The position numbers are program-made. DNA of 64,000 nt, from the NCBI GenBank assembly GCA_949025205.1, contig CARMXJ010000001.1, positions 12,980 to 76,979 of the forward strand. The letters are read 5' to 3'. Position 1 is the stretch's first letter. Each line of letters opens with the position of its first letter. Positions 30,001 to 36,000 of this stretch are shown here, piece after piece. This DNA is from an uncultured Bacilli bacterium (GTDB taxonomy: Bacteria; Bacillota_I; Bacilli_A; RF39; UBA660).

Positions 30001-33000
30001 ATAAGACAAAGTATGATACGGTTGTTAAAAAATTAAAAACGGGAATGATAGCTTTAAATAATCTATATTATTTAAGACCTTGTAATCCATTTGGTGGATA
30101 CAAAAAATCTGGAATGGGTAAAAATAATAGTGAATTTGCTTTAAAAGAGTTGTGTAATATGAAAGTAGTAACATATGAAAAATAAATAATAGACAAAAAG
30201 AAAGATGATGAAAATGAATAAAGAAATATTTGATAAAGAAAATGTATTTGGAAAAGGACTTCCTAATGAAAGTTTTTCCAAGTATTTTAGTGGAGCTTCT
30301 TTTTTAAATCCACTTACAGACCCTAAAGAATGTCCATTGTTTTTAGCCAATGTGACATTTGAACCTTCTTGCAGAAATAATTGGCATATTCATCATGCAA
30401 AAAGTGGTGGAGGACAAATTTTAATTTGTACAGCGGGAAATGGTTGGTATCAAGAAGAAGGTAAAAAAGCAGTGGAACTAAAACCGGGAATGGTTATTAC
30501 AATTCCAGCGAATGTTAAACATTGGCATGGAGCAAAGAAAGACTCGTGGTTTAGTCATATAGCCTTAGAAGTGCCAGGAGTTGATACTAAAACTGAATGG
30601 TGCGAAGCTGTAAGTGATGAAGAATATGAACAACTAAATTAAATAATGTCAATATAGAAATAGTAAAGGAAGTGATAAAAATGAAAAAAGAAGTAGTTCA
30701 AACAAATAATTTTTTAATATATGAAACCAATGACAAAATAAAAGTAGAAGTAATATTAGAACAAGAAAATATATGGATGACTCAAGAACAAATAAGTAAA
30801 CTTTTCAATAAAGCTAAATCTACCATTAATGAACATATTAAAAATATTTATTCTGAGTCGGAACTATTAGAATCAAACACGATGAGAAAATTCGGAAATT
30901 CCGAATTTTCTACTAAACCTACAAACTATTATAATTTAGATATGATAATTGCTGTTGGATTAAGAGTAAAATCTAATAGAGGAACTCAATTTAGAATATG
31001 GGCGAATGAAATATTAAAAGAATATTTAGTTAAGGGATATAATTTAAATGTGGATAGATTTAAAAATAATGGTGGTAGCTTCTATTTTGATGAATTATTA
31101 GAAAAAATTAGAGACATAAGATCATCGGAAAAAGTATTTTGGAGAAAAATATTAGATATTTATGCTACTAGTATAGATTATAATCCAAAAAAAGAAATAA
31201 CTATTAATTTTTTCAAAACGGTGCAAAATAAAATGCACTTTGCTGTTTCTAAAAGTACAGCTGCAGAAATTGTATATAATAGAGTTGATAGTAAAAAAGA
31301 AAATATAGGGTTAACTAATTTTAAAGGTAATATGCCAACAAAATCAGAAACTGAAATTGCTAAAAATTATCTAACCTTAGAGGAACTTGAAATATTAAAT
31401 AGATTAGTGTCAGCATATTTAGATGTTGCAGAAATTAATGCATTAAAACATAATCCAATGAAAATGGATGATTGGATTAAAGAATTAGATAGCTTTTTAA
31501 CAATGACTCACAATGATATATTAAATAATAAAGGAACTATATCTCATGAGCAGGCATTAAAAAAAGCACATGAGGAATATGATAAATATATGCAAACACA
31601 TTTAACACAAGTAGAAAAAGATTATTTAGAAGTGATGAATTTGGAAATAAAACAGATTAACGATGATAAATAGTCTTGTATAAATTCCAGCCTCCTATCA
31701 GGAAGAAGGAAAAGAGGCGGTTAGCCTTGAACCAGTAATGGTAATCACAATGACCACAAACGTAAAACACCGGCATGGTGCGAAGAAAGATTCTTGGTTT
31801 AGTCACATTGCAGTTGAGGTTCCAGAAGAAGAAACAAGCAATGAATGGTGTGAGCCTGTAAGTGATGAAGAATATGAAAGATTATAATAGGAGTGAGATA
31901 ATATGATAATAATTTATGATTTTGATGGAACCTTAACACCATTTGGCATACCACAATATGAGATTTTAAAAAAATTTGGTTATGACGACGAAAAGTTATT
32001 AAAACGAGTAATGGATTTAATGAAAAAAGAAGGACTATCTTTGTATCAATCATTTTATAAAACTTATGAAGATATTTTGAAAGAAAATAATACGGAAATG
32101 AGTTTCGCTAATATCACTTTGGGGTCAAATGATGTAGCGTTTAATCCAAGAGTTTTAGCTTATTTTGAAGAGATGCAAGAAAAGAATAGTGGTATCAATC
32201 ATTTTATCGTCACTTCAGGATTGGAAGAATATGTACGCAATACAGAGATTGGTACTCTAGTTAACGGAATATACGGAGTTACATATCACCGAAAAGGAGA
32301 TATTTTTACTACTGTTGATAGACTAGTTACCGATGAAGAAAAACCAAAAATCATTGAAAAGATAATTGAAAATAATAAAAATAAAAAGGTTATATATGTA
32401 GGTGATGGTCTAACAGATAAATATGCTTTCGAATTTGTTCACTCATTAGGAGGGATATGTATATACGTTGGAACAACAGGAAAAGATTTTGAAGGCTATA
32501 AAATTCTAAAAGAAAATGGCATCGTCGACGAGTATTTTTCAAGAGATTTTTCGGAAGAATCAGATTTTAAAAACTTTATAGAAAAAGAAATGCTTCCAGA
32601 ATATAAAAGAATTTAAAACAGGCTTGCATAAATTCCAGCTTCCTACCAAGAAGAAGGAAAGGAAGCAATAAGTTTAAGAACCAGGAATGGTTATTACAAT
32701 TCCAGCAAATGTCAAACATTGGCATGGAGCAAAAAAAGATTCATGGTTAGTCATATTGCAGTTGAGGTCCCAGAAGAAGAAACAAGCAATGAATGGTGTG
32801 AACCAGTAAGTGATGAGGAGTATGATAAGTTAAGATAGTAAAAAATAATATGTCTATAATAATCGAGGTGAAATTGATGAATGAAAGCAATATAATTTTA
32901 TATGAAACAGATGATGGAAATATAAATGTTGATGTAGTATTAAAAGATGAAACCATTTGGCTTACACAGAAAAGTATGGCTGAACTATTTGATGTAAATT

Positions 33001-36000
33001 CTCAAGCAATAACAAAACATCTTCAAAATATATATAATGATGGCGAATTGCAAAAAGAAGGAACTTGTTCCAAAATGGAACAAGTTCAAAAAGAAGGAAA
33101 TAGGAATGTCAAAAGAAATATTGATTTTTATAATTTAGATGCAGTTATTGCTGTTGGTTATCGTATAAACTCTAAAAAAGCAACTCAATTTAGAATTTGG
33201 GCTACAAGTGTATTAAAAGATTATATTATTAAAGGATTCAAAATTGACAAAGAGCGTATGAAAAATGGGCCAAAGTTTGGGAAAGATTATTATGATGAAT
33301 TACTTGAAACCATTAAAGAGATTCGTTTGAGTGAAAGAAGGCTATATCAAAAAATTACAGATCTTTTTGAAGCAACTAGTGTTGATTATAATAAAGATTC
33401 AGAGAGTGCTTATACATTTTTTAAAATAGTTCAAAATAAACTTCATTATGCAATCACAAATCATACAGCTGCAGAACTTATATATAATAGAGTGAATAGT
33501 GAAAAAGAACATATGGGTTTAACGAATTGGAAAAATGGTCCTAATGGTAAAATTATGAAGTATGACGTATCAATTGCTAAAAATTATTTAAATGAAGATG
33601 AAATAAAAAAATTAGAAAGTCTTACAACATTATTTTTAGATTATGCTGAGGATATGGCCAATGAACAAAAATTGATGACAATGCAAAAGTGGATTGTTGC
33701 AACAGATGATTTATTAAAATTTAGAAATAAAGAATTATTAACACATTCAGGTAATATTTCACATAAGCAGGCTATAGAAAAAGCAAATAAAGAATATGAA
33801 AAATTTAGAGTGAAGCAAGATAGAGAATACATCTCATCTATGGATGAGATGTATAAGAGGTATTTAGAGGAAAATAAAAAATAGGCTTGTATAAATACCA
33901 GTCTCCTATGAAGAACTTGGCAAAGAGGCAGTAAGTCTTAAATCAGAAAGTGTAATAACAATTCCAGCAAATGTGAAACACTGGCATAGAGCAAAAAAAG
34001 ATTCATGGTTCAGTCATGTAGTAGTTGAAGTGCCAAGAGAAGATACATTAAACGAATGGTGAACCAGTAACAGATGAAGAATATAAGAATTTAGATGTAT
34101 GAAATGAGAGTGTTATAATGGATTTAAATTTAAGAAAAGTAACTTCCAATAAAGATATAGCTTTATTTGTAAAGTATAAAGTTTTACTTATTAAGTATCA
34201 CCAACAATATGCTAATGCACTCGGTTTAGTTGATAAGATAGTTGAAAAGTATAATGAAAAGGATGCAAAAAAACATATTGGTGAAAATAATTTTTTTCAA
34301 TATATTATAGAGTTTGAAAATAATGATGCTGGTATACTAGAATATAGTATTAAAACATCTGATATTGATAATAAAAGTATCCTATATATAAAAAATGTAT
34401 TTATAGATAGTAAATATAGAGGATTTGGAATTGGCAAAGAAGTTTTACTAAAAATTAGAAATGAAACAGATTTTAGGATTGAATTAGAATGTTGGTATGG
34501 AATGCCTGCCAATGAATTATATAAAAAATTTAGGAATGAAGGAATTAAAGACAAGATATATTTGGAAAAAATAGTCTTACATAAATTCCAGTTTTTTCCT
34601 ATTAAGAAGAAACAAAGCGAGAAAGTTAAAACATAAAGATATAGTAAATATCCATGCATAATATTTTGTTTATTTCAGTTTGAGCTAGTAATAGCATATT
34701 ATAATTTTTCCTACTATGGAGATTTACTCGTAAACTTTATGGGTTGGCTAGGAATACTTTCATGCCTAATTATAGGAGATTTGTACTTTAATAAAGAAAA
34801 TAGAATTACTAATTATTTTAAAAAAGATTATAGGAGTTTACTAAATGAATTACAAAACAGAGCAACTGGTAGAGAAAATTTTCTTTTTTCATGATACAAT
34901 ATTAAGAGTAAAAAATAGTAATTTGAAAGTGAGAAAAGTACTATGGATCAGGAAAAATTTGGGAAATTTATTAAAGATATAAGAAAAAAACATAATTTAA
35001 CCCAAAAACAACTAGCTGATAAATATAATGTAACTTATCAAGCAGTAAGCAAATGGGAAAATGGTCTTTCATTTCCCAAATGACACAACAAGAAAAATTG
35101 CAAGATTTGCTTTATTTTAAAGGGAAAATCGACACTTATGATATTAAGTTAGAATCAATAAAAGAGGTCGAAAAAGAGCATAATTTCAATATAATTCTAT
35201 CAATTATCAAATAATAGCTGTATTTCTACATAATTATATAAAATAATGTTCTTTACTATAAAATGAGAAAATCTTATCAGGTTTGAGTGTCAGTTGGGTA
35301 TGAGAAGTCATGCCCTTTTATATTATTTATTAAAGTAGATTATGATTCAAAAATGAATTTATAAAAATATGAGGTAACTCATGTTTTTTTTGTTAAAGGT
35401 AAATGAAAGGGGGAATTAATGAATAATAAAATAATAAAGATTGGAACTTTTTTTAGTGGGATTGGAAGCCCAGAAAAAGCATTAGAAAGATTAAAAAATG
35501 AAGGATATATAAAAGATTTTAAGGTAGAGTTTTTTTCTGAAATAGATAAAAATGCAATCAAAAGTTATTGTGCCATTCATAATATTAGTGAAAATTTAAA
35601 TTTAGGAAGTATAATAGAAATCAATGGAGAGTACTTACCTTACTGTGATTTATGGGTAGGTGGATTTCCATGTCAAGATATTTCTTGTGCAGGTAAAATG
35701 AGAGGATTTGAGTTTGAAAGCTCAACAAGATCCAGCTTAGGATGGGAAATGATAAGACTTTTGCGAGAAGTTAAAGAAAAACCAAAGTTTGTGATATTTG
35801 AGAATGTCGCAATGATAAAAAGCAAAAAGTTTAAAGATACTTTAGAACTTTTTAAAGAAGATTTAACAAATTTAGGATATACCTTATATGATGATATATT
35901 GGGTGCTAATGATTATGGAATACCTCAAAAAAGAAAGAGGTATTTTTTAATTGCAATTTTAGATGATAAAAAGAATTTTGAATTTCCTAAAAAAATAGAA

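Follow-up and report, generated by a model that had tools for sequence, protein, structure and literature searches.

A putative array of mobile single-gene cassettes within the 3' third of a cupin gene from an uncultured Bacilli bacterium

Known gene arrays and the layout of the cupin locus

Integrons collect promoterless cassettes of about 1 kb, each with a single open reading frame (ORF) and all in one orientation, at a fixed entry point, and the recombination site lies at the cassette 3' end. Their hallmarks are an intI tyrosine recombinase gene beside the array, along with attI and the Pc promoter, and attC sites, imperfect inverted repeats whose hairpins contain conserved R''/R' core sites. 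In orphan modules of Rhs and contact-dependent inhibition (CDI) systems, the displaced variable toxin tip is functional and comes with a cognate immunity gene. Small modules bounded by short sites and devoid of a private recombinase are represented by integrative mobile elements exploiting Xer (IMEX), pdif modules of Acinetobacter plasmids and translocatable units of the insertion sequence (IS) IS26. Such orphan Rhs and CdiA-CT modules stand displaced behind the main gene (PMC3967940). Accretion in tandem at a target gene's 3' end is represented by the ICESt1 family, which comprises integrative and conjugative elements (ICEs) together with cis-mobilizable elements (CIMEs), in the fda gene of Streptococcus thermophilus (PMC5704250), and repeated integration at tRNA genes by the tycheposons of Prochlorococcus (bioRxiv 10.1101/2020.12.28.424599); for Dehalococcoides, an island is reported to have integrated at the single-copy ssrA gene (PMC3146451). 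Here we describe a locus in a stretch of 64,000 nucleotides (nt) of DNA from an uncultured Bacilli bacterium (the window; assembly GCA_949025205.1, contig CARMXJ010000001.1, positions 12,980 to 76,979), in which four single-gene units, each on the + strand, follow a cupin gene: RhuM-A, a HAD hydrolase, RhuM-B and a GNAT acetyltransferase. The source organism is an uncultured low-GC member of Bacillota, represented by metagenome-assembled genomes (MAGs) only. We interpret the locus as a row of small mobile cassettes lodged within the 3' third of the cupin gene, built by a sequence-specific recombinase acting in trans and reshuffled by homologous recombination, a reading to which we assign a probability of about 0.5. 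That mobile promoterless cassettes enter the cupin at or downstream of codon 82 and displace its old end is, taken by itself, very probable.

The array contains three recurring parts, namely a 26-nt non-coding motif (the tag), a short stretch of the cupin gene (the core) and displaced copies of the cupin 3' end (R1, R2 and R3). Read in the 5' to 3' direction, the order is cupin 5' part, core, cupin end, RhuM-A, tag 1, core, R1, HAD, tag 2, core, R2, RhuM-B, tag 3, core, R3, GNAT, tag 4 and a core-like remnant:

30205..30642, + strand: intact cupin gene (145 amino acids, aa; ORF; PF07883 Cupin_2)
30448..30461, + strand: core TATCAAGAAGAAGG in the intact cupin, codons Y82-G86 (alignments)
30672..31673, + strand: cargo 1, RhuM-A, gene call from 30681 (330 aa; PF13310, E 1e-100; PADLOC PDC-S05, E 5e-137)
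31670..31695, + strand: tag 1, ATAGTCTTGTATAAATTCCAGCCTCC
31696..31887, + strand: R1, cupin codons 82-145, frame kept (tblastn E 1e-27; 76% nt identity to the intact end)
31903..32616, + strand: cargo 2, HAD-family hydrolase (237 aa; PF12710, weak; PADLOC PDC-S34, E 1e-21)
32618..32643, + strand: tag 2, ACAGGCTTGCATAAATTCCAGCTTCC
32644..32838, + strand: R2, with +1 (~32673) and -1 (~32747) frameshifts (tblastn E 4e-12 and 4e-11 in two frames)
32850..33884, + strand: cargo 3, RhuM-B, gene call from 32877 (335 aa; PF13310, E 4e-106; PDC-S05, E 1.5e-141)
33881..33906, + strand: tag 3, ATAGGCTTGTATAAATACCAGTCTCC
33907..34103, + strand: R3, with a 2-nt deletion near codon 132 (tblastn E 7e-20; alignment)
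34118..34636, + strand: cargo 4, GNAT acetyltransferase (172 aa; PF13508 and PF00583, both weak)
34571..34613, + strand: tag 4, ATAGTCTTACATAAATTCCAGTTTTTTCC, with core-like TATTAAGAAGAAAC (repeat family; 16-mer with 2 mismatches; alignment)

Repeat finding and MAFFT alignment identified R1, R2 and R3 as co-linear copies of the last ~195 nt of the cupin, and tblastn detected no further cupin matches in the window beyond these and the intact gene. This bears out an earlier reading of the DNA without database searches (the sequence-only reading), which had described the intact cupin with three co-linear 3'-end units, a conserved non-coding stretch ahead of each of them, and the cargo order given above (PF13310 was found in both RhuM genes, and the Pfam matches of HAD and GNAT were weak). 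The same reading missed the fourth tag (34571-34599), located where the GNAT ORF comes to its 3' end. As for the frames, it was right about the kept frame of R1, the 2-nt deletion of R3 and the 1-nt deletion of R2, but overlooked the additional +1 insertion in R2.

The cargo genes of the window begin 10-40 nt 3' of a cupin stop codon, and the cassettes of the window and of six related contigs (L100, L102, L113, L117, L150 and L152, see below) each consist of one same-strand ORF 0-40 nt past the cupin stop. Promoterless single-ORF cassettes in one orientation, a trait of integrons, are thus present. A consensus scan found no terminator-like sites on the + strand between 31240 and 35296, and because of this and the tight spacing, transcription of the cargo from the cupin promoter is plausible; judged from such sequence features, co-transcription from the cupin side may be envisaged for the whole array. 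The intact cupin is regarded as the landing gene of the array and probably as its expression platform too. The possibility that the tag itself is a promoter was rejected, as reading by eye found no acceptable -10/-35 arrangement. The consensus scan revealed no promoter-like sites on the + strand of tags 1, 3 and 4, and a lone 9-of-12 site (32822-32849) lies at the R2 stop. An Rfam search of the locus matched no family.

Among known systems, CIME/ICE accretion comes close to this layout. Shared traits are repeated integration into a single site within a conserved gene's 3' end (PMC5704250), members that lack an integrase and would need it in trans, and the boundaries of the units: every unit is delimited by a tag-core junction and a cupin 3' end, just as att repeats include the target-gene end. 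On the other hand, the array units are 0.7-1.3 kb long with one promoterless gene instead of kilobase-scale decayed islands, each brings ~195 nt of replacement coding sequence, and there are neither remnants of mobility genes nor an integrase-bearing partner at the site. No integrase-bearing element with the tag was found among the matches listed in scans of viral contigs and in one metagenome scan, or in the neighbouring conjugative element.

The likeness to integrons comprises promoterless single-ORF units behind a fixed entry point, a 3' site-like element that sometimes provides the stop codon, an entry-proximal cassette that would be the newest, and cargo such as GNAT, NUDIX and other small enzymes. 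Unlike in integrons, no IntI gene is adjacent, the tag is a linear 26-nt motif without an attC-type hairpin, the entry point lies inside a coding gene and each cassette contains a spare gene end. With orphan Rhs/CDI modules, the array shares 5'-truncated 3' parts of genes with a linked downstream gene, the displacement of older ends by newer ones, and rearrangement by homologous recombination in a repeated conserved stretch. In contrast to these modules, the displaced cupin ends are conserved (proportion of non-synonymous differences, pN, 0.06-0.18) and apparently functionless, the variable part is a separate gene, the cargo includes RhuM, HAD, GNAT, NUDIX and others but not immunity genes, and a conserved non-coding tag is present at each junction.

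Tycheposons and ssrA islands resemble the array in integrating at one gene end and in their adaptive or defence cargo. They are equipped with replication modules and tyrosine recombinases, and their targets are RNA genes, with repeats that are short, whereas the cupin array has a protein-coding target, a ~220-nt repeat and no visible recombinase. Xer-dependent modules and IS26 units also insert next to an existing site copy and provide a candidate logic for a host enzyme acting in trans; however, no IS is present in the cupin array, and pdif modules have no duplicated gene ends. In a hand comparison with what we take to be the Bacillus subtilis dif sequence, the tag matched at 8/11 positions on the XerD-arm side and at 3/11 positions on the other arm, which makes a dif-like site (28 bp, with an XerC arm, a 6-bp spacer and an XerD arm) doubtful; the organism's own dif site lies outside the window. 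Finally, a diversity-generating retroelement differs from the array in that no reverse transcriptase was present among the ORFs read or scanned against Pfam, and in that the repeats differ in all kinds of ways, mostly synonymously and including indels, not only at adenines.

Displaced cupin ends and the tag-core junction

The displaced ends share 72-81% nt identity with the intact end and among themselves. In pairwise comparisons by the Nei-Gojobori method (intact end, R1, R2 and R3), the proportion of synonymous differences (pS) was 0.47-0.78, i.e. saturated, and pN was 0.06-0.18; for R1 and the intact end, the values were 0.78 and 0.13, and R1 and R2 differed by 22 synonymous and 8 non-synonymous codon changes. 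Because saturated pS is combined with low pN, the fragments are ends of different functional alleles, and the view of the sequence-only reading that they are decayed copies of this cupin's end does not hold. They have thus diverged mostly within working genes of different lineages, the frameshifts and odd substitutions having come later. Non-conservative changes are seen in R1 (IPAN to MTTN, W to R), while the conceptual R2 protein, with its frame repaired, is 95% identical to the C-terminus of a database cupin (P0113). The C-terminus of the resident cupin reaches at most 89% identity to any of its 120 nearest homologues, so that database cupins resemble R2 more than they do the resident end. 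For the cupin as a whole, 8000 homologues were obtained at E <= 1e-20, the best of which is 83% identical. The fragments may travel with either the preceding or the following gene.

A test for chimerism of the resident cupin gave r = -0.35 between N- and C-terminal identities over 120 homologues and was rejected as evidence, since picking the homologues by overall similarity to the same protein is enough to produce a negative r. Gene callers label displaced cupin ends as hypothetical proteins of 49-50 aa which start at the conserved Met of PGMVITIP (31738-31887 in the window, 1019-1171 in L100).

The tag has the 26-nt consensus AYAGnCTTGCATAAATTCCAGYCTCC and often gives the cargo its stop codon: tags 1 and 3 supply the TAG stop codons of RhuM-A and RhuM-B, respectively, and the GNAT ORF runs on through tag 4. 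The tag abuts TAYCARGAAGAAGG, i.e. cupin codons 82-86, which is followed by the cupin 3' end. The core at codon 82 is the start point of every displaced fragment in the alignments, and the tag-core junction falls at the same nucleotide in all readable copies. Tag 4 is followed by core-like TATTAAGAAGAA and then by ~90 nt of a barely recognisable cupin remnant; we regard it as the oldest junction of the array.

Nine tag copies from at least six contexts gave the consensus AtAGgCTTgcAtAAATtCcAGccTCC with a mean pairwise identity of 87.5% over 26 nt, while the cupin DNA flanking the tags is 72-85% identical and saturated at silent sites. As the tag is better conserved than the adjoining coding DNA, its sequence itself looks to be under selection. 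When the window was searched for the 16-mer CTTGTATAAATTCCAG with up to 3 mismatches, 4 matches were obtained, at junctions only. The count of tags alone is weak, as at least 4 matches also appeared in 12/100 shuffles; decisive over chance is the ~200-nt co-linear homology behind 3/4 of the tag sites. The 16-mer CTTGCATAAATTCCAG matches its own reverse complement at 10/16 positions, and its most variable positions, 5 and 12, belong to the six that do not match. This partial palindromy suggests a putative dimer-binding site, nothing more.

On the cupin side, no 17-nt DNA block of the gene is better conserved than the one containing the junction, GGTTGGTATCAAGAAGA, with 97.5% column conservation among 7 AT-rich alleles. 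Such a block suits either a broad-host attB site or a hot spot of homologous exchange. No conserved hairpin was found at the junction on either strand (consensus fold -2.8 kcal/mol, 0 compensatory pairs), and single-stranded DNA folds of the junctions on both strands were no better than those of shuffled sequences, except for R2 (z ~ -3.5). The repeats are direct and not attC-like hairpins, as the sequence-only reading had it. An attC-like hairpin suggested by L1/L2 covariation (GCCTCC..GAGGC vs GCTTCC..GGAAGC) was rejected, as this covariation is absent from other copies.

Related arrays and their cargo

Metagenomes contain the tag-plus-fragment structure in at least six further contexts, where both the cargo and its combinations differ, on contigs that are mostly 1-12 kb long. 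A metagenome scan for the tag followed by TAY retrieved two true loci: L100, with cupin, NUDIX gene, tag and cupin fragment, adjoins sporulation genes, and L102 has the order flavodoxin, CMD, cupin, GrpB, tag and fragment. Searches with the HAD protein led to L113, where HAD (84% identical) is a lone cassette between the intact cupin and a decayed tag with core. L117 consists of a RhuM-Fic pseudogene, a truncated fragment, HAD (78%), a decayed tag with fragment and a HAD_2 hydrolase, L119 of HAD (91%), tag and fragment; in L114 and L115, a CMD-cupin fusion is followed by HAD (76%), forming a window-like cupin-HAD junction without a tag. Searches with RhuM-A added L150 and L151, composed of tag, fragment, RhuM-A (96%), truncated tag, a remnant of the RhuM-B start and mutS, as well as L152, composed of a cupin tail, RhuM-A (96%), tag, fragment, an ADP-ribosylglycohydrolase (ARH) gene, tag, truncated fragment and a Mob_Pre pseudogene.

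The same cassettes thus occupy different slots. RhuM-A comes first in the window but not in L150, where a tag and fragment stand ahead of it, and what follows it is HAD in the window, ARH in L152 and, in L150, the scar of a deletion. HAD takes the second place in the window, is the only cassette of L113 and has other neighbours on its two sides in L117. L102 and L152 have a common terminal junction, at which the fragment breaks off near codon 117 and runs into the tail of an XRE-like gene; despite this, L102 holds GrpB, and L152 holds RhuM-A plus ARH. Empty sites are represented by the closest N-terminal relatives of the cupin (L103-L112, 80-81% identical), with neither a tag nor an extra fragment. 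This slot polymorphism supports the proposal of the sequence-only reading that genes were repeatedly acquired at one site in the cupin 3' end, and the differing cassettes in the same slots which it had suggested looking for were found, along with empty cupin sites in relatives.

Outside these contigs, a scan of a genome collection with the cupin protein gave 80 loci from cultured or MAG species (67-77% identical), the window's own species not being among them, and none had a tag behind the cupin or a tag-fragment structure. In two of them (L058 and L059), extra cupin-like sequences with 40-46% identity are located a few kb upstream of the matched cupin. Scans of viral contigs for the tag yielded nothing, or chance matches in one phage gene family, and a viral scan with the cupin alignment gave 23 cupin genes and no arrays. 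BLAST searches of plasmids and phages with the locus, one repeat unit and L152 returned ordinary cupin or RhuM genes only.

Across the arrays, the cargo leans towards small enzymes and genes that are candidates for anti-phage functions (RhuM/PDC-S05 and the PDC-S34-like HAD); besides the four genes of the window, it includes NUDIX, GrpB, ARH, HAD_2 and RhuM-Fic genes. By family assignment, the set looks like a pool of small defence and detoxification genes. The HAD family of the window is rare (87 matches in a protein search), and homologues with 76-91% identity stand directly behind cupin ends in L113, L114, L117 and L119. Distant HAD homologues (L122-L126) are located between uvrA-NUDIX and cmk, without comparable repeats. 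The order in L122-L125 is uvrA, NUDIX, HAD (55%) and cmk, and L126 has two tandem NUDIX genes (4989-5876) where these have one. HAD homologues of 68-76% identity linked to cupin/CMD without a tag are found in L114/L115 (L114 9248-10705), where in L114 HAD lies directly behind the CMD-cupin fusion, and in L118 (2221-3745), where it lies upstream of CMD-cupin. These tagless loci could be sources of cassettes, or cassettes after tag loss.

Homologues of RhuM-A that are 96-97% identical are found in the arrays L150-L152. The RhuM family is abundant, with thousands of homologues, and the best 120 are all at least 79% identical. The RhuM-A ORF and ~60 nt upstream of it are ~95% identical in DNA across three lineages, with ~65-85% in both flanks (30615-31673 compared with L150, L151 and L152), and the RhuM gene may move or be exchanged as its own unit. 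Perfect palindromes with a stem of at least 11 bp occur in 5 places of the window, 3 of them inside ORF6N/RhuM-type genes (30885-30911, 33061-33087 and 13973-14001); these have perfect 12-14-bp stems, loops of 1-3 nt and differing sequences. In RhuM-A and RhuM-B, the palindrome follows the called start by 185-205 nt, in the ORF6N gene it follows the listed TTG start by 275 nt, and the RhuM-Fic gene of L113 (minus strand, within 3359-4051) has one in a similar relative position. Members of the ORF6N/RhuM family may thus share a structure that is conserved as nucleic acid.

As for the surroundings, CMD and aldehyde dehydrogenase genes precede the array. On its 3' side, an XRE-like gene is split by a frameshift (34943..35214, + strand; HTH_3 in the gene calls), and its C-terminal part (LLYFKGKI...SIIK) is weakly similar, in an alignment of the terminal regions, to the downstream neighbour shared by L102 and L152. 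It is followed by a Dcm-type cytosine methyltransferase at 35419-36464, split into ORFs of 291 aa and 57 aa. The region 34943-36464 looks like the remains of a restriction-modification or controller module, the array thus adjoining a decaying variable region.

Proposed mechanism, alternatives and implications

In the model that we propose, a cassette would consist of a replacement cupin 3' end (codon 82 to stop), one promoterless cargo gene and the 26-nt tag. Judging from the anatomy of the array and the comparison with its relatives, an incoming cassette would recombine with the resident cupin at or downstream of the core. The cupin would remain intact, now ending in cassette-derived sequence, while the previous 3' end and whatever followed it would be shifted one place downstream and decay there. 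The cargo would be read from the cupin promoter. Joining of tag and core is attributed to a candidate recombinase acting in trans, whose gene might lie at another place of the genome or on a helper element. As the mosaic breakpoints show, homologous recombination among the 72-85% identical repeats then deletes, swaps and reshuffles cassettes. We favour a trans-acting recombinase because the junction is nucleotide-exact across alleles that are 20-25% different and because the non-coding tag is conserved; that such an enzyme acts on tag plus core has, in our estimate, close to an even chance.

Breakpoints between related arrays were found at more than one place. L150 and the window agree at 94-98% (50-nt windows) over RhuM-A, the spacer upstream of it and the final ~25 nt of the cupin, and at 64-86% over the remainder of the attached cupin end. 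The break of L152 falls in the spacer, and the tag behind its RhuM-A differs at 5/26 positions. In L100, identity between the intact and the displaced end amounts to 98% over a stretch that begins at the core and finishes ~20 nt short of the stop; beyond it, the two are unrelated. Deletion scars are present in L150 and L117. Crossing-over or gene conversion within the cupin repeats therefore belongs to the system.

The search for an enzyme covered the window ORFs of at least 110 aa, which were read by eye, and 30 of them (array-flanking or unidentified) were scanned against Pfam. Within this scope, no tyrosine or serine recombinase, transposase or reverse transcriptase was found in the window, and in this respect the sequence-only reading, which saw no recombinase nearby, was correct. 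There is no intI next to the array, and the Phage_integrase family did not turn up. A conjugative element of ~25 kb begins ~5.5 kb 3' of the array (40.1-65.1 kb, i.e. 40120 to beyond the window end) and occurs as separate ~25-kb contigs in many samples. It encodes a Cna_B surface protein, SSB, a VirB4-like ATPase (nearest to Spiroplasma/Mycoplasma ICE ATPases, ~27%), an M23 peptidase, a Toprim primase and a putative relaxase, 3' of which the cargo varies. As it contains neither the tag nor a piece of cupin, it was rejected as a helper of the array. A tyrosine recombinase of 283 aa is present only in a variant of the element from another sample (L153), and no finding connects it with the array. 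An intergenic 13-bp perfect palindrome of the element (62687-62718), upstream of small genes and the putative relaxase, could be a candidate origin of transfer.

Several points weigh against the proposed mechanism. With a break near the cupin stop in L150, a crossover fixed at codon 82 cannot be the sole event, and the L100 pattern calls for gene conversion, or else for a donor and a recipient allele that closely resemble each other. No recombinase was found beside the related arrays, on contigs mostly as short as given above, no excision product or circular form was observed, and there is no inverted-repeat core structure around the crossover point. Moreover, the model leaves unexplained how a new cargo gene acquires a tag. 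A Logan contig of 964 nt (L119) with 25 nt repeated at both ends was considered as a circular cassette and not accepted, because breakage of the k = 31 assembly graph by a 35-nt repeat would presumably explain the end repeat equally well.

Of the alternatives, traffic by RecA only survives best, although we hold it to be rather unlikely. Here, the tag-core junction would have arisen once, and units between two cupin repeats would move by homologous recombination only: circles would loop out and re-enter any cupin by a Campbell-type crossover, or linear DNA would be integrated by two crossovers, with the cupin end and tag/core serving as portable homology. In its favour, no recombinase was found near the array, breakpoints are seen near the cupin stop as well as at the core (one Campbell crossover near the tail yields the L150 pattern), tag plus core is the longest near-identical stretch common to the repeats, and the deletion scars fit as well. 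However, repeats that are just 72-85% identical, with few identical runs longer than 30 nt, are poor RecA substrates. A hitch-hiking non-coding tag should also decay like the adjacent silent sites, yet it retains its 87.5% identity, and the sharp junction of at least 9 different cargo genes to the same tag is left unaccounted for.

We consider it improbable that the units are stumps of larger elements (ICEs, integrative and mobilizable elements or prophages) which inserted into the cupin and lost their integrase and transfer genes, as in CIME formation and accretion. Tandem accretion at a target-gene 3' end with integrase-less remnants is well documented (PMC5704250), the conjugative element lies ~5.5 kb downstream and a Mob_Pre pseudogene stands behind the L152 array. 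Against this, the design is uniform and compact, with one same-strand cargo ORF (mostly intact, a pseudogene in L117) starting 0-40 nt past the stop and ending at the tag, no cassette contains remnants of integrase, excisionase or transfer genes, and the tag was found neither in the viral contigs scanned nor in the conjugative element.

An assembly artefact, in which cupin loci of several strains were stitched together, is very improbable: the window does come from a MAG, and Logan contigs break in the repeats (over more than 31 nt in a row, R1 does not differ from R2), but mis-assembly is unlikely because an exact-protein look-up found the identical array, contiguous in independent ENA and NCBI MAG assemblies and piecewise in Logan assemblies, in several samples of one study, and analogous arrays exist in unrelated studies and from other assemblers. 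Local tandem duplication, by which the cupin 3' end and neighbouring DNA were copied in place and diverged around ordinary neighbour genes, agrees with the direct and co-linear repeats but is essentially excluded, as saturated silent sites with conserved amino acids indicate that the copies evolved as functional genes elsewhere, and the same cassettes occur in other orders in other genomes.

Returning to cassettes joined by an enzyme in trans, we class the array with site-specific tandem accretion and cassette arrays, and see about a one-in-three chance that it represents a distinct integron-like system with its own site and enzyme. Tentatively, this could be an undescribed capture system of low-GC Bacillota in which the cupin is both landing pad and promoter, the cassettes carry a spare end and a dedicated 26-nt tag, an Xer-like host enzyme or an unrecognised one acts in trans, and anti-phage or detoxification genes are preferred.

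If the tag is a true recombination site, there would be a second way besides integrons to stack promoterless single genes behind one entry point. Its setting would be Gram-positive gut bacteria, which are not known for integrons. The tag is a concrete target for finding the enzyme, and the 40-nt junction signature (CATAAATTCCAGYCTCCTAYCARGAAGAAGG) is usable for mining metagenomes for new cassettes, several cargo types of which match candidate defence families (PDC-S05 and PDC-S34). For annotation, the 'hypothetical proteins' of 49-50 aa behind such genes are displaced cupin ends, not genes, and further arrays could be sought by looking for short 'genes' of this kind next to accessory genes, on their 3' side. 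Even if RecA alone is responsible, the array would still show that accessory genes can pass between divergent genomes with a conserved gene end as their portable homology.

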